A stretch of 6,700 nt of DNA from a virus (IMGVR_UViG_3300045988_151348); one strand, 5' to 3'. Counted from the first letter of the stretch, positions 1 through 6,700 are shown. Numbers and translations: made by a program. Notes: generated by a model not told the origin, from the sequence alone.

Positions 1-95
1 GCTCGTTGAGGAGGGCGTCCGTCAAAATCCTGCCTTTGTGCAAAACGGAGAAAATGTTGCAAAAACGGGTCAAATAGGCGATATCGTATCCCCAT
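1..95. repeat. Left arm of a ~95-bp inverted repeat that closes the window (partner 6605-6700)
   Basis: The reverse complement of 6646-6700 equals 1-55 exactly. Positions 56-95 keep matching 6605-6645 with 3 substitutions (56, 71, 89) and one 1-bp indel. Similarity stops at CCCCAT (90-95) / ATGGGG (6605-6610). The arm contains direct TGYKGCAAAA-type motifs at 37-48 and 55-69, with a third at 105-121 just inside the arm. Confidence 0.95.
81..95 (-). other. Inverted, unoccupied third copy of the prophage att core
   Basis: The minus strand reads ATGGGGATACGATAT, 14/15 identical to the direct repeat at 1633-1647 and 6605-6619. It is followed outward by CGCCTATTTGACCCG, the same flank that follows attR (TCGCCTATTTAACCCG). 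Confidence 0.6.
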
Positions 96-732: not shown

Positions 733-830
733 GCCGCCGTCAGGCGGCAAATGTGGCGCCGCTGTCAAGCGGCAAATGTGGCGCCGCTGTCAAGCGGCAA
801 ATGTCGCACCGCCCTCAGGCGGCAGATCTC
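733..830. repeat. Four tandem ~25-bp units, each with a short GC stem-loop, abutting the hsp20 stop codon
   Basis: The units start at 733, 758, 783 and 808. Units 2 and 3 (GCCGCTGTCAAGCGGCAAATGTGGC / ...GTCGC) differ at one base. Each unit holds GCCGC-N6-GCGGC or a variant. The last unit overlaps the TGA of hsp20 (829-831 on +). They may act as a 3' stabiliser or terminator for the minus-strand transcript. Confidence 0.85.
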
Positions 831-1269
831 ACTCGATCGCCAGTCTCCGGCTGCCGGAAACCTCGACATCCTTCTTCGGCAGCGTCAGGCTCAGCACGCC
901 GTCGTTGTAGCTGGCCTTGATGCCCTCGGCCTTGACGCCGGAGATATCGAAGCTCCTCGCGTAGCTGCCGTAGCTGCGCTCGCAGCGGACGTAGCTCTTG
1001 TCCTTCTCCTCGTGCTCGTTCTTGCGCTCGGCCTTGATGGTCAGGTTGTCGCCGTCGATGTCGATGGCGATGTCCTCCTTCTTCATGCCGGGCAGATCGG
1101 CCTCGAGCAGGTAATGGTCGCCCTTGTCCTGAATGTCGGTCTTGAACGTGCCGACGTCGCCGAGGAAGTCGCGGTTGCCGAAGAACGCGCGCTCCAGCGC
1201 CTCCATGTCGCGGAACGGGTCATAGGTGGTCATGTGGTTATTGTTGCGGTAAGGTCTCAGTTCAAACAT
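829..1269 (-). CDS. hsp20: Small heat-shock protein, Hsp20/alpha-crystallin family (146 aa)
   Basis: The translation has the alpha-crystallin core typical of clostridial Hsp18-type proteins (FKTDIQDKGDHYLLEADLPGMKKEDIAIDIDGDNLTIKAERK...RSFDISGV...IKASYNDGVLSLTLPKK). A GGAGG Shine-Dalgarno (complement of 1278-1282) lies 8 nt before the ATG at 1269-1267. Codon usage is GC-rich. Confidence 0.93.
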   Translation of the reverse strand: MFELRPYRNNNHMTTYDPFRDMEALERAFFGNRDFLGDVGTFKTDIQDKGDHYLLEADLPGMKKEDIAIDIDGDNLTIKAERKNEHEEKDKSYVRCERSYGSYARSFDISGVKAEGIKASYNDGVLSLTLPKKDVEVSGSRRLAIE

Positions 1270-1424: not shown

Positions 1425-1474
1425 AAGCGTCGGATTTTGTTGCATTTGACGGGCAGCCTGCCCCAAAACCGTCC

Positions 1475-1496
1475 ATGTCTACCCGATGTCTACCCG
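1475..1496 (+). repeat. Perfect tandem 11-bp repeat ATGTCTACCCG x2 (GTCTACCC iterons 2 and 3 of 5)
   Basis: GTCTACCC occurs at 1477-1484 and 1488-1495. The same 8-mer in the same orientation also occurs at 1343-1350, 1546-1553 and 1558-1565. Confidence 0.8.
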
Positions 1497-1543
1497 CCGA
1501 AACGCCTGGGGCGCAAGGGTTTGCGGGTTTTCCGAGAGGGTCG

Positions 1544-1567
1544 CCGTCTACCCTTCCGTCTACCCAA
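1544..1567 (+). repeat. Tandem 12-bp repeat CCGTCTACCCTT / CCGTCTACCCAA (GTCTACCC iterons 4 and 5)
   Basis: The repeat is directly visible. It lies 66-89 bp left of the attL core. A short hairpin, CGCAA-GGGT-TTGCG (1512-1525), sits between the two iteron pairs. Confidence 0.8.
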
Positions 1568-1630
1568 TTTTTCGCGCCGATTCCCGAAGCGCCTGCTATT
1601 TCTGCGAAAATTTTTGAAATTTCTGAAAAT

Positions 1631-1655
1631 GTATGGGGGTACGATATCCCCATAC
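1631..1655. other. attL junction: perfect 25-bp palindrome containing the 15-bp att core (1633-1647)
   Basis: GTATGGGG-GTACGATAT-CCCCATAC has 8-bp arms and a 9-nt spacer. The GC-rich to AT-richer composition change occurs here. The core ATGGGGGTACGATAT is repeated exactly at 6605-6619. Confidence 0.75.
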
Positions 1656-1670
1656 GAAGAAGGTGATTTC

Positions 1671-2684
1671 TTGCCATGCTATCATCCGCTTAAAGCCTTT
1701 GTTTTAGGTGAAAAAGACGGTAAACGGTTGCTCAAGGTGACGTGCTATGAGGTAGACCATCTCGAGCGTGCTGGTGAAGGTTTTGCGTGTTGCACACATC
1801 CCGCTTATGGCCGTCTCGGTGATGTTACGGAGTTCATCGAAATTCCCTGCGGAAAGTGTTCCGGCTGTCGGCTTCAGAGATCGCGTGAGTGGGCTAATCG
1901 TTGTATGCTCGAGCTTGAATACCACAAGTCGAGTTACTTCGTCACTCTGACTTATGATGATGCTCATGTTCCGATTCATTATTATTCCGATCCGGAGACC
2001 GGTGAGGCCCTGCCGAGTATGTCTCTTGTGAAGCGAGATTTTCAACTTTTTATGAAGCGTCTCCGGAAGAAATTCGGTGAAGGTATTCGATTTTTTGCAT
2101 CTGGAGAGTATGGTTCTCTGACGTTTCGCCCTCACTATCATGCAATCATTTTTGGATTGGAGCTTGATGATCTTGTTCCCTATAAGCGATCTGCGCAAGG
2201 TTTTCAATATTTTAATTCTGTGTCACTGCAGGACGTCTGGCCGAATGGCTTTGCTGTTGTTGCTCCGGTGACTTGGGAGACCTGTGCTTATACTGCCCGT
2301 TATGTCATGAAGAAGCTTACCGGCCCTGAAGCTGAGTTCTACGAGAATTTTAATATTCTTCCTGAGTTTTCGCTTATGTCGCGGAAGCCCGGTATTGCCC
2401 GAAAGTATTACGAGGATCATCCCGACATATATGAACATGAGTTCATCAACATTTCGACTGAGAAAGGAGGTAGGAAGTTTCGACCTCCGAAGTATTATGA
2501 TAAATTGTTTGATCTCGATTGTCCGGAAGAATCTGCCAAGCTTAAAGCTGTTCGTCAGAAGATGGCAGCTGAAGCTCAGAAAGCAAAATTACAAAAAACC
2601 ACACTTAGTTATTTAGACCAGCTTGCCGTTGAAGAACGGAATCAGCTGGCCCGAATAAAATCATTGAAAAGGAGTTGTATCTAA
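1671..2684 (+). CDS. VP4: Replication initiation protein VP4 (HUH rolling-circle endonuclease)
   Basis: Motifs: N-terminal LPCYHPLKAF; Cys cluster CGKCSGCRLQRSREWANRC; motif 1 YFVTLTYDD; HUH motif HYHAIIF (HYH at 2133-2141); catalytic YTARYVMKK (Tyr codons at 2289 and 2301). I place the start at TTG 1671, preceded by GAAGGTGA (1657-1664). ATG 1629, on the host side of the junction, is an in-frame alternative. The 1437 start in the ORF track runs into GC-rich host DNA and is unlikely. Confidence 0.9.
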   Translation: MPCYHPLKAFVLGEKDGKRLLKVTCYEVDHLERAGEGFACCTHPAYGRLGDVTEFIEIPCGKCSGCRLQRSREWANRCMLELEYHKSSYFVTLTYDDAHVPIHYYSDPETGEALPSMSLVKRDFQLFMKRLRKKFGEGIRFFASGEYGSLTFRPHYHAIIFGLELDDLVPYKRSAQGFQYFNSVSLQDVWPNGFAVVAPVTWETCAYTARYVMKKLTGPEAEFYENFNILPEFSLMSRKPGIARKYYEDHPDIYEHEFINISTEKGGRKFRPPKYYDKLFDLDCPEESAKLKAVRQKMAAEAQKAKLQKTTLSYLDQLAVEERNQLARIKSLKRSCI

Positions 2685-2797
2685 TGCGTAAACCTATGCG
2701 TCCCAAGAAAGACAAGAAGGTCTTTCGCCGTACTGCTGCGAAGTCCAAGAAGATTAACATTAACCCGACTGTTTTCCGTGGAGGTATCCGGCTTTGA
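2684..2797 (+). CDS. Small basic DNA-binding/packaging peptide (phiX174 J / gokushovirus VP8-like), 37 aa
   Basis: MRKPMRPKKDKKVFRRTAAKSKKININPTVFRGGIRL is strongly Lys/Arg-rich. An AAGGAG Shine-Dalgarno lies at 2669-2674. The ATG overlaps the VP4 stop (TAATG, 2682-2686). It is below the size cutoff of the ORF track. Confidence 0.8.
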   Translation: MRKPMRPKKDKKVFRRTAAKSKKININPTVFRGGIRL

Positions 2798-2958
2798 AGT
2801 TTGAATTGACTGTTGGTGTTTATGACGGTGATGATCTTGTTGATACTGTTTGTTATGTTGTTCCCGCTGAGCCTTTGGCTCGTATTTTTGCTCAGATTCC
2901 TGAGGATTCCGTTGTTGTTTCGGTAAGTATTGAAGGTGTAAAGGAGTTGTACGAATGA
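2794..2958 (+). CDS. Hypothetical small acidic protein, 54 aa (TTG start)
   Basis: MKFELTVGVYDGDDLVDTVCYVVPAEPLARIFAQIPEDSVVVSVSIEGVKELYE. GGAGGT (2780-2785) lies 8 nt upstream. The TTG overlaps the preceding stop (TTGA) and its own stop overlaps the next ATG (ATGA, 2955-2958). Without this ORF, a compact genome would have 157 nt of non-coding DNA here. I do not recognise a family. Confidence 0.5.
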   Translation: MKFELTVGVYDGDDLVDTVCYVVPAEPLARIFAQIPEDSVVVSVSIEGVKELYE

Positions 2959-3206
2959 AATACGGTGTTTATTCTATCCGCGATGCCCGTACGGGCTTTC
3001 TTCCGCCTACGGTTGATCAGAACGATTCTTCCGCGATGCGGAATTTCGCTCATGCCTGTATGCAGAAGGAAAGCCTTCTGTTTTCCCACATTGAGGATTA
3101 TGCCCTTTGTAAGATCGGCGAGTTTGACAATGAGACTGGCACGATTTTGACGCAGCTCCCCGTGGTTATTTTGGATGGTACGTCCATCCAGAGAAAGGAT
3201 GTTTGA
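2955..3206 (+). CDS. Conserved small microvirus non-structural protein (possibly VP5-like), 83 aa
   Basis: An AAGGAG Shine-Dalgarno (2941-2946) lies 8 nt before the ATG. The N-terminus MKYGVYSIRDARTGFLPPTVDQNDSSAMRNFAHAC resembles, from memory, a small protein common in gokushovirus genomes between VP4 and VP3. The functional assignment is tentative. Confidence 0.7.
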   Translation: MKYGVYSIRDARTGFLPPTVDQNDSSAMRNFAHACMQKESLLFSHIEDYALCKIGEFDNETGTILTQLPVVILDGTSIQRKDV

Positions 3207-3208
3207 TT

Positions 3209-3709
3209 ATGTATGATGAAAAGCTTAGATTCGCTACTCAGTATCGTCCGAGAACTCGTTTCCCTTCAAATCTTGGTGAGCGCGAAAGGATTCTCTATCA
3301 GCCTAAGTTTGATGAAAATGGAGTTATGGATCTCGTTGAGTCTGGCCGAGAAGACCTTTACGATTTCATTCAATCGCACGCAGAGTCTGTTGACATCCAC
3401 GTGATTCTTGCTCGATATCAGAATGGCGACATTGACGCGCTTTCGCGTGTCCAGGGCGCTTATGGTGATTTTTCCAATATGCCCACGTCTTATGCTGAAC
3501 TCTTGAACAGGGTTAATGAAGGTCAGAGTTTTTTCAATTCTCTTCCGGTTGATATTCGCGCGAAGTTCAATCATAATTTCGCGGAGTTTATGGCTGGTAT
3601 GGACAAGCCTGATTTCCTTGACAAGCTCGGAATCAAGCCCGAGCGAGAGTCTGACCCGTCCCAGGAGGAAAAACCGGCTGTTGAGCCGAAAAAGGAGGTT
3701 ACGGAATGA
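3209..3709 (+). CDS. VP3: Internal scaffolding protein VP3
   Basis: Its position immediately upstream of VP1 and its sequence character fit VP3 (DLYDFIQSHAESVDIHVILARYQNGD...GDFSNMPTSYAELLNRVNEGQSFFNSLPVDIRAKFNHNFAEF, acidic/Lys-rich tail). ATG 3209 lies 9 nt after AAAGGA. TTG 3203, which overlaps the previous stop as TTGA, is an alternative start. The stop overlaps the VP1 ATG (ATGA, 3706-3709). Confidence 0.85.
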   Translation: MYDEKLRFATQYRPRTRFPSNLGERERILYQPKFDENGVMDLVESGREDLYDFIQSHAESVDIHVILARYQNGDIDALSRVQGAYGDFSNMPTSYAELLNRVNEGQSFFNSLPVDIRAKFNHNFAEFMAGMDKPDFLDKLGIKPERESDPSQEEKPAVEPKKEVTE

Positions 3710-5403
3710 ACCGCAATGTTGAATCCCATTTCGCGCTTAATCCCACGAATATCGATATCCGGCGTTCGACGTTTGATCGCTCGCATTCTCTTAAGACTTC
3801 GTTTAACGTTGGTGACATTGTACCTTTTTTCGTTGACGAAGTATTACCGGGAGATACGTTCAACGTGGACACATCCAAAGTTGTGCGTTTGCAGACGTTG
3901 CTTACTCCGGTCATGGATAACATCTATCTTGACACATATTTCTTCTTCGTACCGAACCGGCTTACTTGGAGTCATTGGAAGCAGTTCAACGGTGAGAATA
4001 CGGAATCTGCTTGGATTCCTCAGACCGAGTATGAAATACCTCAAATTACTGCTCCTGCTGATAGCGGATGGTCTGTTGGAACTATTGCCGATTATCTCGG
4101 TGTGCCTACCGGCGTTCCTAATCTTTCCGTTAGTGCTCTTCCCTTCCGAGCTTATGCCTTGGTAATGAATGAGTGGTTTCGTGATGAAAACCTATCTGAC
4201 CCGCTCGTTGTTCCCGTCGATGATGCTACTGTAGCCGGTGTGAATACCGGTACGTTTGTGACCGATGTTGCGAAAGGCGGTCTTCCTTATAAGGCCGCTA
4301 AGTATCACGACTATTTTACAAGCTGTCTTCCGTCTCCCCAGAAAGGCCCGGATGTTTTGATTCCCTCGGCCACGTCCGGCGAGTATCCTGTCGTTACCCG
4401 TGAACAGCCTCATGATCCCGGTGGATTTGTTTTAACTGGTCTTTCTAATATTTCTTTTGCTTCTGGAGATCGACCGGTTAATATCTATGATTCTCTTGCT
4501 TTCAAGCCTGTTTCTGCTGGTTCTAATTATGCTGGCATTACTGGTTTAAGTGGTGGTGCTGATAAGCCCGGTTTTGATCCTGTTAACCTTTATGCTGTTG
4601 CTTCCGGTGGTCTTGGTGCTTCCATTAATCAGCTTCGCATGGCGTTTCAGATTCAGAAGCTCTATGAGAAAGACGCCCGTGGTGGTTCCCGATATATCGA
4701 GATTCTTAAGTCTCATTTCGGTGTGACTTCTCCCGATGCCCGTCTTCAGCGTCCCGAATATCTCGGTGGTAACCGTGTCCCCATCAATATTAATCAGGTT
4801 GTCCAGCAGTCGGCTACGGCCTCCGGCGAGACTGCACAGGGTACTGTCACCGGTATGTCTGTCACTACGGATACGCATTCCGATTTTACCAAATCTTTTA
4901 CTGAGCATGGCTTTGTCATTGGCGTTATGGTTGCTCGTTACGATCATACTTATCAGCAGGGCCTTGAACGTTTCTGGTCTCGTAAGGATCGCTTTGACTA
5001 TTATTGGCCTGTTTTTGCTAACATCGGTGAGCAGGCTGTGAAGAACAAGGAGATTTTTGCTCAAGGTCCGTCTGTTAAGGATTCTGCTGGTGCTGTCATC
5101 GATGATCAGGTTTTCGGTTATCAGGAAGCGTGGGCCGATTACCGCTACAAGCCGTCCCGCGTCACTGGCGAAATGCGTTCTCAGTACGCGCAGTCCCTTG
5201 ATGTTTGGCATTTGGCTGATGACTATTCTGCTTTGCCTATGCTTTCGGATTCGTGGATTCGTGAGGATAAGACAAATGTGGATCGTGTGCTTGCAGTCAC
5301 ATCTTCTGTTAGCAATCAGTTGTTTGCCGATATCTACATCAAGAACCGGACTACCCGTCCGATGCCGATGTACTCTATCCCCGGTCTGATCGACCATCAT
5401 TGA
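3706..5403 (+). CDS. VP1: Major capsid protein VP1 (Microviridae F-protein family), 565 aa
   Basis: Hallmark N-terminus HFALNPTNIDIRRSTFDRSHSLKTSFNVGDIVPFFVDEVLPGDTF. Also FFFVPNRL, ALPFRAYALVMNEWFRD, INQLRMAFQIQKLYEKDARGGSRYIEILKSHFGV..D.RLQRPEYLGG. A long Gly/Ser-rich insertion (roughly 4380-4620) matches the surface-loop insertion typical of gokushoviruses. An AAGGAGGT Shine-Dalgarno lies at 3692-3699. Confidence 0.97.
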   Translation: MNRNVESHFALNPTNIDIRRSTFDRSHSLKTSFNVGDIVPFFVDEVLPGDTFNVDTSKVVRLQTLLTPVMDNIYLDTYFFFVPNRLTWSHWKQFNGENTESAWIPQTEYEIPQITAPADSGWSVGTIADYLGVPTGVPNLSVSALPFRAYALVMNEWFRDENLSDPLVVPVDDATVAGVNTGTFVTDVAKGGLPYKAAKYHDYFTSCLPSPQKGPDVLIPSATSGEYPVVTREQPHDPGGFVLTGLSNISFASGDRPVNIYDSLAFKPVSAGSNYAGITGLSGGADKPGFDPVNLYAVASGGLGASINQLRMAFQIQKLYEKDARGGSRYIEILKSHFGVTSPDARLQRPEYLGGNRVPININQVVQQSATASGETAQGTVTGMSVTTDTHSDFTKSFTEHGFVIGVMVARYDHTYQQGLERFWSRKDRFDYYWPVFANIGEQAVKNKEIFAQGPSVKDSAGAVIDDQVFGYQEAWADYRYKPSRVTGEMRSQYAQSLDVWHLADDYSALPMLSDSWIREDKTNVDRVLAVTSSVSNQLFADIYIKNRTTRPMPMYSIPGLIDHH

Positions 5404-5414
5404 GAGGTGATCTA

Positions 5415-6239
5415 ATGACTACTGGTAAGGATGCTGCTCAGATTCAGAGCGTTCCTGCTGTTGGTAATTTGGATTCTGCTCTTTCCCGTATTACGAGGAC
5501 TGCTTCAGAAAACACCGCTAAAAGCGCTCAGATGGCTTCTGAGCAACGCGATTGGCAGGAAAGGCAAAATGCCTTGGCTATGCAATTTAACGCTCAGGAG
5601 GCTGCTAAAAGCCGTTCTTGGCAGGAATACATGAGCAATACTGCGCACCAGCGTGAAATTCGTGATCTTAAGGCAGCCGGTTTGAATCCGGTTTTAAGTG
5701 CTATGGGAGGTAACGGCGCTGCCGTTACCTCCGGCGCTACCGCTTCCGGCGTTACCTCTGCCGGAGCTAAAGGCGAGGTTGATACCTCTGCTAATGCTGC
5801 TTTGGTTCAGGTTCTCGGTTCTATTCTTTCTGCACAGACTCAGCTTCAGACCGCTAACGTTAATGCTCGGACGCAAGAGGCCGTTGCCGATAAGTATACC
5901 GCGATGGAAAAACTTGTTGCTCAGATTGGCGCCGATGCTTCTAAATATGGTGCTGAGCTTGGTTATGCTGGCTCTAAGTATAATGCCAATATGCATTATG
6001 CTCTTGGTAAGTATCAGACTGATAAAGGATTTGAGAATCAGGTTTTTCTTGAGCAGAATTATCCTTCTAACTATGTTCAAGCTGTTAATTCTATTCTCAA
6101 GGCTCTTGGTCTTGATGTTACAGGAGGTTCTACCTCCGGTGAAGGTTCTGTTTCTGCTGAACAGTATGCTAAACTTATGGAAAAGTATAATGCTGCTCTT
6201 CTTGGTTCAGGTCCTAAACGTTCTAAGCATCAGAGATAA
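5415..6239 (+). CDS. VP2: Minor capsid / DNA pilot protein VP2
   Basis: It has the conserved VP2 core WQEYMSNTAHQREIRDLKAAGLNPVLS, followed by a Gly/Ala/Ser-rich region. GAGGTG (5404-5409) lies 5 nt before ATG 5415. TTG 5400, which overlaps the VP1 stop as TTGA, is an alternative start. Confidence 0.9.
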   Translation: MTTGKDAAQIQSVPAVGNLDSALSRITRTASENTAKSAQMASEQRDWQERQNALAMQFNAQEAAKSRSWQEYMSNTAHQREIRDLKAAGLNPVLSAMGGNGAAVTSGATASGVTSAGAKGEVDTSANAALVQVLGSILSAQTQLQTANVNARTQEAVADKYTAMEKLVAQIGADASKYGAELGYAGSKYNANMHYALGKYQTDKGFENQVFLEQNYPSNYVQAVNSILKALGLDVTGGSTSGEGSVSAEQYAKLMEKYNAALLGSGPKRSKHQR

Positions 6240-6241
6240 AG

Positions 6242-6283
6242 AAAACAGAAAACTCCGGAGCTGTGCTTCGGAGTTTCTGTTTT
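6242..6283 (+). terminator. Intrinsic-terminator-like hairpin after VP2
   Basis: AAAACAGAAAACTCCGGAGC-TGT-GCTTCGGAGTTTCTGTTTT forms a ~20-bp stem with one bulged A and one G-T pair. It ends in TTTT and starts 3 nt after the VP2 stop codon. Confidence 0.75.
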
Positions 6284-6321
6284 GTAACCAAGCGTGAGCG
6301 CGGTTAGCGAATAGATATGCA

Positions 6322-6341
6322 CCAGCGAGCGCCAGCGAGCG
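6322..6341 (+). repeat. Perfect 10-bp tandem repeat CCAGCGAGCG x2 in a GC-rich patch of the phage intergenic region
   Basis: The repeat is directly visible. A related AGCGTGAGCG occurs at 6291-6300. The patch (about 6291-6345) is clearly more GC-rich than the rest of the phage. Confidence 0.7.
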
Positions 6342-6345
6342 GACA

Positions 6346-6378
6346 CAGCCCCATTACTCTCTTGATGTAATGGGGCTG
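6346..6378. other. 12-bp-stem hairpin in the phage intergenic region (candidate origin or protein-binding structure)
   Basis: CAGCCCCATTAC-TCTCTTGAT-GTAATGGGGCTG has a perfect stem and a 9-nt loop. The arms (CCCCATTAC / GTAATGGGG) are near-copies of the att palindrome arms (CCCCATAC / GTATGGGG). Confidence 0.8.
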
Positions 6379-6416
6379 AGTGACACCACGATATGCAAAA
6401 TGCTCTCTTTAGTTTA

Positions 6417-6444
6417 TTGACAAGCTATGAATATATGATATATT
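6417..6444 (+). promoter_or_regulatory. Near-consensus sigma70/sigmaA-type promoter with extended -10
   Basis: -35 TTGACA (6417-6422), 16-bp spacer, TG (6436-6437), -10 TATATT (6439-6444). It lies about 30 nt upstream of the ATG at 6475, which is preceded by AAGGTG (6464-6469). Confidence 0.7.
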
Positions 6445-6474
6445 AATGAATATAATAAACTGTAAGGTGATTAA

Positions 6475-6582
6475 ATGAAAAATGATGATAAAGATAAAAT
6501 GCTTGATGATTTTTGTTTACAGATGCTTTTGCTTGTTGGAGCTGGTGTTGCTCTAGTTGTTATTATTTGTTCTTTTCTTTGA
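6475..6582 (+). CDS. 35-aa peptide with a charged N-terminus and one predicted transmembrane helix
   Basis: MKNDDKDKMLDDFCLQMLLLVGAGVALVVIICSFL. There is a good Shine-Dalgarno 5 nt upstream and a strong promoter directly upstream. The hydrophobic stretch of about 20 residues is long enough to span a membrane. It is below the ORF-track cutoff. Confidence 0.6.
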   Translation: MKNDDKDKMLDDFCLQMLLLVGAGVALVVIICSFL

Positions 6583-6604
6583 TTTGTCCTCCTGAATTTC
6601 TGTG

Positions 6605-6619
6605 ATGGGGGTACGATAT
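6605..6619 (+). other. attR core, exact copy of 1633-1647
   Basis: ATGGGGGTACGATAT. Weaker similarity continues to the left (TGAATTTCTG at 6593-6602 versus TGAAATTTCTG at 1615-1625). To the right the sequence becomes the inverted-repeat arm shared with 1-80. Confidence 0.75.
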
Positions 6620-6700
6620 TCGCCTATTTAACCCGTTTTTGCAATATTTTCTCCGTTTTGCACAAAGGCAGGATTTTGACGGACGCCCTCCTCAACGAGC
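6605..6700. repeat. Right arm of the window-closing inverted repeat (partner 1-95)
   Basis: See the left arm. The outer 55 bp are identical and the inner ~40 bp are slightly diverged. Confidence 0.95.

Follow-up and report, generated by a model that had tools for sequence, protein, structure and literature searches.

A complete gokushovirus integrated at a multi-copy recombination core upstream of SLH genes in Oscillibacter

The prophage, its host and its junctions

The window analysed here is a 6,700-nt stretch of DNA (IMGVR_UViG_3300045988_151348), corresponding to positions 73–6772 of a contig of 6,844 nt that MEGAHIT assembled from a human gut metagenome (ERZ918902, L015; other loci and genomes are likewise given by L numbers). 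Positions 1648–6619 are a complete, apparently functional gokushovirus, which lies between a host small heat-shock gene (hsp20) and the leader of a host gene encoding a protein with surface-layer homology (SLH) domains. The 4,972-nt unit holds the whole gokushovirus gene set (VP4, J-like, VP5, VP3, VP1 and VP2) entirely on the plus strand, with every core gene full length and supported by Pfam and PHROG profile matches, and VP4, VP1 and VP2 align end to end with free circular relatives (0 stops, 0 frameshifts). The unit is bounded by an exact 15-mer direct repeat, ATGGGGGTACGATAT, at 1633–1647 and 6605–6619, with a start-to-start spacing of 4,972 nt; this core is also written ATGGGGRTACGATAY, and three matches to it with at most one mismatch occur in the window, against 0.01 expected from shuffles. 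A sequence-only reading of the window had described a one-strand block of VP4, a J-like gene, two small open reading frames (ORFs), VP3, VP1 and VP2, with intact genes and an exact 15-bp repeat predicting a 4,972-nt circle. This description was borne out by the two located repeat copies, by the full-length genes and by profile searches of the core proteins, which matched microvirus families throughout and identified the second small ORF as VP5.

Circular relatives of the phage measure 4.8–5.1 kb, compared with the 4,972-nt unit here, and its VP1 is 98% identical to that of OP549876 and 86–98% identical to thousands of microvirus VP1s. The close relatives MG945853, MG945387 and MG945205, whose genomes are 87–89% identical, are labelled 'Family 3, Gokushovirinae B' in Table S1 of Kirchberger et al. 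(2022). By proxy of these labels, the phage can be assigned to gokushovirus-type Microviridae, Family 3 / Gokushovirinae B.

The host flank shows 97.6% nucleotide identity to Oscillibacter sp. MSJ-31 (Bacillota, Clostridia, Oscillospiraceae) over the hsp20 region, in agreement with the high-GC clostridial Firmicute proposed earlier as the host. The Hsp18-like protein and the CIRCE (controlling inverted repeat of chaperone expression) element named in the same proposal correspond to hsp20 (829–1269, minus strand; 146 aa; PF00011, 3.1e-23) and to an exact CIRCE operator upstream of it, TTAGCACTC-N9-GAGTGCTAA, at 1398–1424. Composition had been said to switch exactly at the repeats. This is true of codon usage, as G+C content at third codon positions (GC3) is 0.905 in hsp20 and 0.34–0.55 in the phage, but not of bulk GC, since the host intergenic region 1270–1632 is already at 49% compared with 46% in the phage. 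Likewise, hsp20 does adjoin the prophage, as expected from its description as an insertion beside a heat-shock locus, but the landmark that matters is the repeated recombination core in front of an SLH gene.

On either side of hsp20 lies an SLH gene: the two are divergent paralogues of 920–1,190 aa with the SLH domains at the N-terminus (E about 1e-16), and their leaders and 5′ coding regions form an inverted repeat of ~945 nt with cores at its inner ends. On the right, positions 6620–6700 (plus strand) are the first 81 nt of one upstream leader, the gene itself lying beyond the window; at empty-site loci the SLH gene starts ~180 nt beyond the core. On the left, positions 1–95 (minus strand) hold the start of the leader of the second, divergent SLH gene and are the inverted-repeat partner of 6605–6700. 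They include a third core copy, inverted at 81–95 (ATGGGGATACGATAT on the minus strand) and with one mismatch. The window ends 1–81 and 6620–6700 form an 81-nt inverted repeat of 98% identity (1–153 and 6692–6844 in L015), and the contig stops at both ends because this terminal inverted repeat represents the leaders of the two divergent paralogous SLH genes around hsp20.

Both junctions of the prophage were also present in a Logan contig (L016) from a second run (ERR636364), obtained with another assembly pipeline. The free form is represented by pig, chimpanzee and human GenBank microvirus genomes that are 87–90% identical over >80–90% of the element. Two free genomes (L001 and L002) carry CTGTG-ATGGGGATACGATATCCCCAT-ACAAAGAAGG, which is the circle junction forecast from the window (including CTGTGATGGGGGTACGATATCCCCATACGAAG) with two substitutions in the 35-nt string. 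The circle junction was also found in 14 IMG/VR genomes, of which 7 have terminal direct repeats of 18–121 nt consistent with circular assembly, and in the circular Logan contig L163. The forecast empty site was recovered as well, in long contigs of the same host: the empty attachment site (attB), GAAAATGT-ATGGGGGTACGATAT-CGCCTATTTGACCC, lies at the homologous position in nine contigs of 50–509 kb that encode the identical Hsp20, and L012 shows a single-base deletion (one T missing). Furthermore, a different phage variant of 4,872 nt, 89–92% identical, occupies the same site in a 246-kb NCBI contig (L005, GCA_047248745.1), and related prophages lie at the same kind of site in at least 13 other assemblies; the prophage contigs other than L005 are 5–34 kb long and come from unrelated studies. 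The site is polymorphic, empty or occupied, among strains with identical Hsp20, and the phage variants differ between samples. At the level of assembled sequence, the two hybrid junctions, the empty site and the free circular junction confirm that the phage is genuinely integrated in the host chromosome.

The recombination core, its partners and its rearrangements

The phage attachment site (attP) is a 21-bp imperfect palindrome, ATGGGGA-TACGATA-TCCCCAT, just upstream of VP4, with inverted arms of 7–9 bp and an asymmetric centre. Host attB reads ATGGGGG-TACGATA-TCGCCTA and has 15–16 bp in common with attP. In the window, attL (1633–1653, plus strand; core 1633–1647) combines the host left arm ATGGGGG, the overlap TACGATA and the phage right arm TCCCCAT, and attR (6605–6625, plus strand; core 6605–6619) combines the phage-side left arm, the same overlap and the host right arm T(T)CGCCT. 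The core thereby shows the layout of a tyrosine-recombinase site, with inverted arms, an overlap of 6–8 bp and exchange confined to the overlap. Phage sequence immediately left of the core (6588–6604, GAATTTCTGTG; L029 5420–5435, TGAAATTTCTGT) is similar to TGAAATTTCTGAAAATGT, with which the host module ends; this could mean either that the recognised site continues to the left or that the phage once acquired host sequence.

In the host, the core lies between a repeated upstream module and an SLH gene leader, and several copies occur per genome. The module next to attL (1464–1632, plus strand) contains four GTCTACCC direct repeats and a palindrome, GAAATTTC. It is ~170–185 nt long, with 158–184 nt conserved at 92–95% between copies, and at least three copies per genome lie by hsp20, by a polysaccharide deacetylase gene and at a locus with a 129-aa gene and OAD-beta (129-aa/OAD). 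Core copies number from 2–3 to at least 5–6 within 20 kb, in both orientations and at least three genomic contexts, with the housekeeping genes asnS, dCMP deaminase, OAD-beta and hsp20 between them. When one genome per species was scanned, the module–core junction motif occurred three times in MSJ-31 and elsewhere only in two small contigs labelled as metagenome-assembled genomes (MAGs) of other taxa, besides chance matches; the module/core system looks lineage-restricted on this survey. In the two contigs, L017 (labelled a Bacteroidales MAG) and L022 (labelled Peptococcaceae), the module and core are 94–95% identical to those of Oscillibacter, and both are probably mis-binned Oscillibacter contigs.

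Module–core junctions were classified in at least 120 metagenome loci, with at least 124 junctions listed, in addition to earlier loci. Among the junctions listed, the hsp20 left context was joined to an SLH partner in 34, to DUF4317 in 4, to a partner beginning 'tgatactc' in 3 and to the phage-type arm CCCCAT in 6. The corresponding numbers were 28, 0, 21 and 2 for the deacetylase context and 17, 8, 5 and 1 for the 129-aa/OAD context, so that three left contexts pair with at least four kinds of right partner. The phage-type arm was found in 9 of the 124 listed metagenome junctions, eight of them microvirus attL sites and one (L116, in the 129-aa/OAD context) another element. Lysogens were found at the hsp20 copy (L005, L029, L053, L056, L085 and L160–L162) and at the polysaccharide-deacetylase copy (L110, L122 and L158). 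Since the phage-type entry of the 129-aa/OAD context is a non-microvirus element, the module copies occupied by the microvirus number at least two. The partner in L116 (reverse strand, from 1146) begins with the CCCCAT arm (ccccatataatacgtctg...), continues into high-GC coding sequence and may be another element that uses the site.

The crossover was mapped in seven prophages, besides that of the window, for which both ends were present (L005, L029, L085, L110, L158, L160 and L161). Core position 7 was the phage-type A in attR of all seven and the host-type G in attL of five. In L160 and L161, and also in L162, attL contains an extra base, giving GGGGGA (GTATGGGGGATACGATAT; L160 6380, L161 5480, L162 1102). 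In the window, position 7 of attR is G, a base that some free genomes also carry there (L150). All prophages are oriented alike, in the order module, VP4 through VP2, core and SLH. Because the position-7 variants segregate reciprocally, host-type to attL and phage-type to attR, integration is shown, as read from these junctions, to be a conservative, reciprocal site-specific exchange between attP and the host site. The same comparison places the crossover to the right of position 7, within the shared TACGATAT. Small indels cluster at the overlap edges, namely in attL of L160–L162, in the window attR (TACGATATTCGCC) and at the empty sites of L006 (T-to-A, extra T).

A second phage is associated with the core. 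The right partner that begins 'tgatactc' corresponds to the start of a Rep_trans gene (PF02486; phrog_27843, 3.5e-71), which is full length in L143 and L057 and reduced to a stump of 51–66 aa in most strains. In L057, genes for a Zot-like assembly ATPase and for small hydrophobic proteins occur together with it. This gene content indicates that an inovirus-like prophage occupies the same module–core site (L057 1–3450; L143 395–1340). In L050 (reverse strand, 100–1000), ~58 codons of the rep stump run on in frame into a membrane-protein gene, yielding a chimeric ORF of 298 aa.

Host DNA is also rearranged at the core, and strains that are 98–99% identical differ by deletion or inversion at core copies. 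L010 lacks 6.5 kb that in L009 (98.6–99.4% identical) lies between two directly repeated module–core copies, and at the deletion junction the parental single-nucleotide polymorphisms switch between core positions 7 and 15. RecA-type recombination is implausible for this deletion because the exchange took place in a 7-bp identity window bounded by mismatches. Relative to the module and the flank 'Z', a rep segment of ~850 nt lies in opposite orientations in L143 (465–1353) and L057 (reverse strand, 755–1631); it is bounded only by inverted 15-bp cores, with no long inverted repeats. Moreover, the hsp20 segment is inverted between L009 and L011, with breakpoints at cores.

The recombinase, alternative explanations and known systems

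None of the eight phage ORFs matched a recombinase family in the Pfam and PHROG profile searches. Because the phage encodes no such enzyme, the exchange is probably performed by a host-encoded recombinase. The arm–overlap–arm geometry suggests a tyrosine recombinase, and a serine recombinase with a 2-bp crossover inside the same interval is possible. A shared host enzyme is favoured over two phage Rep proteins because an unrelated single-stranded DNA (ssDNA) phage uses the same core. The strategy resembles, by analogy, that of integrative mobile elements exploiting Xer (IMEX), here at a site that is not dif-like.

It was considered whether the prophage could be an artefact or a relic. An assembler might have joined a free microvirus to host DNA through the shared 15-mer, and the contig is indeed short, ends in inverted repeats and is joined at a short repeat. 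However, the recovery of the same two junctions from the second run under a different pipeline speaks against this, 15 bp is far under the k of 127, and two genuine paralogous SLH leaders account for the terminal inverted repeat. In addition, non-identical related prophages with matching hybrid junctions occur in contigs of 9–246 kb from unrelated studies and assemblers. Because these include the 246-kb NCBI contig and many metagenome contigs, a chimera is excluded, and we give it next to no probability. There is also only a slim chance that the element is a fixed, inactive or domesticated remnant that has lost excision and virion production. The extra T beside the overlap in the window attR could impair excision, and the phage-side arm of the window has G in place of the usual A. 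Nevertheless, the same G occurs in free genomes, phage-free host strains carry the same extra-T or T-to-A variants (L006), the core genes are full length, the core is kept at both att sites, strains sharing one Hsp20 sequence vary in occupancy, and the occupying phage variant differs between samples.

Two further explanations concern the enzyme. In canonical XerCD/dif recombination, the core would be the dimer-resolution site of the host, the extra copies would be IMEX by-products, and the phage would be the Firmicute equivalent of the enterobacterial gokushovirus EC6098. Such a scheme would accommodate the lack of a phage integrase and the conservation of one arm beside a degenerate other. 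It would also fit the position of attP next to the VP4 N-terminus, which is sometimes seen in enterogokushoviruses, and the use of one site by an inovirus-like phage as well as a gokushovirus, the two kinds of phage for which XerCD/dif exploitation is known (Kirchberger & Ochman, 2020, PMC7062461). It is nonetheless unlikely, as the core forms part of a leader conserved among paralogous SLH genes, and a stretch of 20 kb has at least 5–6 copies of it, which point either way and are separated by housekeeping genes. Its likeness to B. subtilis dif, E. coli dif and difSL is at chance level (12–15 of 28–31 ungapped positions), these being known dif types and maybe not that of the host. No canonical dif motif was found in ~1 Mb of redundant host loci, a search that is uninformative on the true dif of the host. 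With regard to the features that define IMEX, an element-encoded recombinase is absent here as in those elements, whereas neither a dif-like site nor a single chromosomal dif target was seen. VP4 itself might act instead: as an HUH endonuclease, it could nick the hairpin-forming attP as an origin and transfer the strand to an origin-like host sequence. HUH enzymes can catalyse strand transfer, as in IS91, IS200/IS605 and the Rep protein of adeno-associated virus (AAV), attP is a hairpin-capable palindrome immediately upstream of VP4, and CGATAT in the core weakly resembles TGATAT, which we take to be the sequence at the phiX174 origin nick site. We consider this route very unlikely in view of the clean reciprocal hybrids with 15-bp identity kept at both junctions, and of the use of the same core in a host inversion and a host deletion without microvirus. 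Moreover, the inovirus-like phage on the same core encodes Rep_trans, and one would hardly expect two unrelated Rep families to recognise the same sequence.

With a host recombinase as the preferred agent, attP would recombine with a host core inside TACGATAT. The sole near-consensus sigma-70-type phage promoter, TTGACA-16-TATATT with TG (11/12; 6417–6444, plus strand), lies ~160 nt upstream of attP and is conserved in L002 and L003. Because attP sits between this promoter and VP4, integration may disconnect it from the VP4–VP2 genes. In the circle it is predicted to read through orf35 (a small ORF before attP) and attP into VP4, and in the prophage it would be aimed at the SLH gene. Such a separation might quiet the prophage without a repressor, and the redirected promoter might alter surface-protein expression. 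A broader scenario, possible but doubtful, is that Oscillibacter has a multi-copy non-dif system (core ATGGGGR-TACGATA-Y) that joins expression modules to alternative SLH genes, that a gokushovirus and an inovirus-like phage independently copied its core, and that integration uncouples the phage operon and rewires a surface protein that is a possible receptor.

Several observations weigh against the preferred explanation. No recombinase is conserved in the 20-kb neighbourhoods of the sites: clustering of all ORFs (≥150 aa) in ~130 host loci yielded nothing but SLH genes, housekeeping genes, transposases of insertion sequences or other elements, and strain-specific large serine recombinases of unrelated elements. 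A scan of the module for sigma-70-type promoters found none on the plus strand, so that its role as a promoter remains an assumption. Some combinations of module and arm imply homologous exchange or gene conversion within the module. The hsp20-segment inversion was rejected as proof of a site-specific enzyme, because the ~945-nt inverted SLH 5′ regions are homogenised and a crossover near their outer ends fits equally well. Finally, the nearest free genomes are ~90% identical, not identical, to this prophage, whose excision and virion activity are a prediction only.

Two candidates that arose in the search for the enzyme were set aside. Rep_trans was rejected as a host recombinase, given its truncation to 51–66 aa in most strains and its place in the inovirus-like prophage, and a recurrent '297-aa' ORF cluster proved to be a spurious antisense ORF through the module. 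Genes of ~200 aa that recur beside SLH genes were considered as small invertases and had no Pfam match.

Integrase-less ssDNA phages that use a host recombinase include the IMEX elements CTXphi, VGJphi and TLCphi of Vibrio. As in Vibrio, a filamentous phage and a second ssDNA phage, here a microvirus, share one target, and arrays and remnants accumulate at the site. The target here is, however, not dif-like and lies in the leader of surface-protein genes, and a role for Xer would be analogy only. Switching of surface proteins by DNA rearrangement is known from the sap promoter inversion of Campylobacter fetus, from vsa/HvsR of Mycoplasma pulmonis and from shufflons. As in these cases, different surface-protein genes follow a promoter-side module at the present locus, the connection being a short conserved site or a conserved 5′ region, and closely related strains show inversions and deletions between copies. 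Unlike in those systems, no dedicated recombinase was found, promoter activity of the module is an assumption, and part of the variation may be homologous recombination. We know of no phage that integrates at sites of the sap, vsa or shufflon type. Krupovic and Forterre reportedly described in 2011 integrase-less Alpavirinae proviruses of Bacteroidetes, for which dependence on a host recombinase is said to have been proposed; these differ from the present phage in microvirus family, host phylum and target sites.

Integrase-less microvirus lysogeny is established in Bacteroidetes, Alphaproteobacteria and Enterobacteriaceae (including PMC7062461). The EC6098 group of enterobacterial gokushovirus prophages uses the dif site, with XerC/XerD dependence shown genetically (Kirchberger & Ochman, 2020, eLife, PMC7062461). 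The prophage described here resembles EC6098 as an integrase-less gokushovirus (~4.3–5 kb) that carries a short imitation of a host recombination site in or beside the VP4 N-terminus, with direct site copies flanking the prophage, coexisting free circular and integrated forms and no known repressor. It differs in that EC6098 uses a single 28-bp dif (11+6+11), whereas the site here is unrelated in sequence, has an apparent 7-bp overlap, and is present in multiple copies in both orientations upstream of SLH genes. Furthermore, the host of EC6098 is proteobacterial and supplies XerC/XerD, whereas a Firmicute is the host here and the recombinase is inferred only.

The sequence-only reading had held that microvirus lysogeny is not well documented in Firmicutes, which was overstated, as complete microvirus prophages in Firmicutes isolates have been reported (Kirchberger, Martinez & Ochman, 2022, mBio, PMC9239249). 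Assemblies of Oscillibacter sp. PC13 and of Flavonifractor are among the sources of the sequences in Table S1 of that paper, whose text singles out only isolates of Erysipelatoclostridium and Mammaliicoccus; MG945205, among the relatives, is linked by CRISPR to Flavonifractor. The present phage belongs to the same virus group, its close relatives being labelled Family3_GokushovirinaeB. Those entries are given without att sites, boundaries or mechanism (for some of the prophages the paper speaks of 'undefined insertion boundaries'), whereas the present analysis defines the two junctions, the empty site, further insertion loci and the interval of the crossover. A microvirus in Oscillibacter is thus not new in itself. 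A search for literature on Oscillibacter microviruses or S-layer inversion systems gave nothing specific. We found no description of base-exact att sites, of a multi-copy non-dif target before SLH genes, of its use at two loci, of a site shared with an inovirus-like phage or of host rearrangement at the same core.

To our knowledge, hardly any microvirus has a host in culture, and experimental proof of lysogeny is confined to Enterobacteriaceae, where it proceeds via XerCD/dif. The locus provides base-exact prophage ends, attP and attB, two alternative insertion loci and, in Oscillibacter sp. MSJ-31, a cultured near-identical host with empty sites. Just as EC6098 was revived in E. coli, this phage could be revived in a Firmicute of the gut, giving a directly testable Firmicute–gokushovirus system of the gut. 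Its site suggests that integrase-less ssDNA phages may exploit host recombination sites other than dif. If the broader scenario is true, a site before S-layer-type genes would connect lysogeny with surface variation, and possibly with expression of the receptor, in a gut commensal that is very common, so described because the identical Hsp20 is indexed in 2019 blocks of a public assembly collection.

Further features of the phage and the host flank

All phage features below are on the plus strand. VP4 (1671–2684; 337 aa from a TTG start) is the replication initiator (HUH Rep; PF23343, 1.4e-17; phrog_942, 1.6e-131). Across attL, a host ATG at 1629 shares the reading frame of VP4, and gene callers add 14 codons in lysogens (351 vs. 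337 aa). VP4 is followed by a predicted small basic DNA-binding peptide of the J/VP8 kind (2675/2684–2797; 37–40 aa; phrog_10695, 4.5e-8), which is 85–100% identical among relatives. Between this gene and VP5, a variable slot holds orf54 (2794–2958), which matched no family; orf54 is present in the window, L160–L162 and L016, and most relatives lack it or have a replacement. VP5 (Phage_ORF5, 2955–3206; PF20577, 3.2e-22; phrog_1670) precedes the internal scaffolding protein VP3 (3203–3709; Chlamy_scaf, PF09675, 1.8e-40), the 565-aa major capsid protein VP1 (3706–5403; Phage_F, PF02305, 8.6e-165, residues 17–561) and the DNA pilot protein VP2 (5400–6239; phrog_5158, 8.9e-81, plus many pilot-protein PHROGs). 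The profile searches of the phage ORFs gave no further structural families (phiX-type external scaffold or spike).

Downstream of VP2 lies a strong terminator-like hairpin of 12 pairs with a T run (6250–6276). A second, conserved hairpin, CCCCATTAC-N9-GTAATGGGG (6343–6381), is located in the phage intergenic region 180–265 nt upstream of the core and shows two-sided compensatory changes in ~25 relatives (GGCCC/GGGCC, GACCC/GGGTC, GCCCATACA/TGTATGGGC). It is a candidate complementary-strand origin or accessory protein site, and its arms look like the att-site arm motif (G)TATGGGG. The small hydrophobic peptide encoded by orf35 (6475–6582; 35 aa) is 89–97% identical in relatives.

In the host module, the GTCTACCC repeats are arranged in two pairs around a GC-rich stretch of ~50 nt (1478–1570), and this arrangement is kept in all module copies. 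These repeats could be binding sites for a regulator or for an accessory or arm-binding domain of a recombinase. An Rfam scan of the window produced no credible match: the module belongs to no known RNA family, and the att region is neither a tRNA nor a tmRNA. From the 3′ end of hsp20, four tandem copies of a 25-nt unit (GTCGTGCCGCCGTCAGGCGGCAAAT), each forming a small GC hairpin, extend downstream (728–852). This region varies in length between strains, and the core is found at locus positions 11103–11329 in L005–L014.

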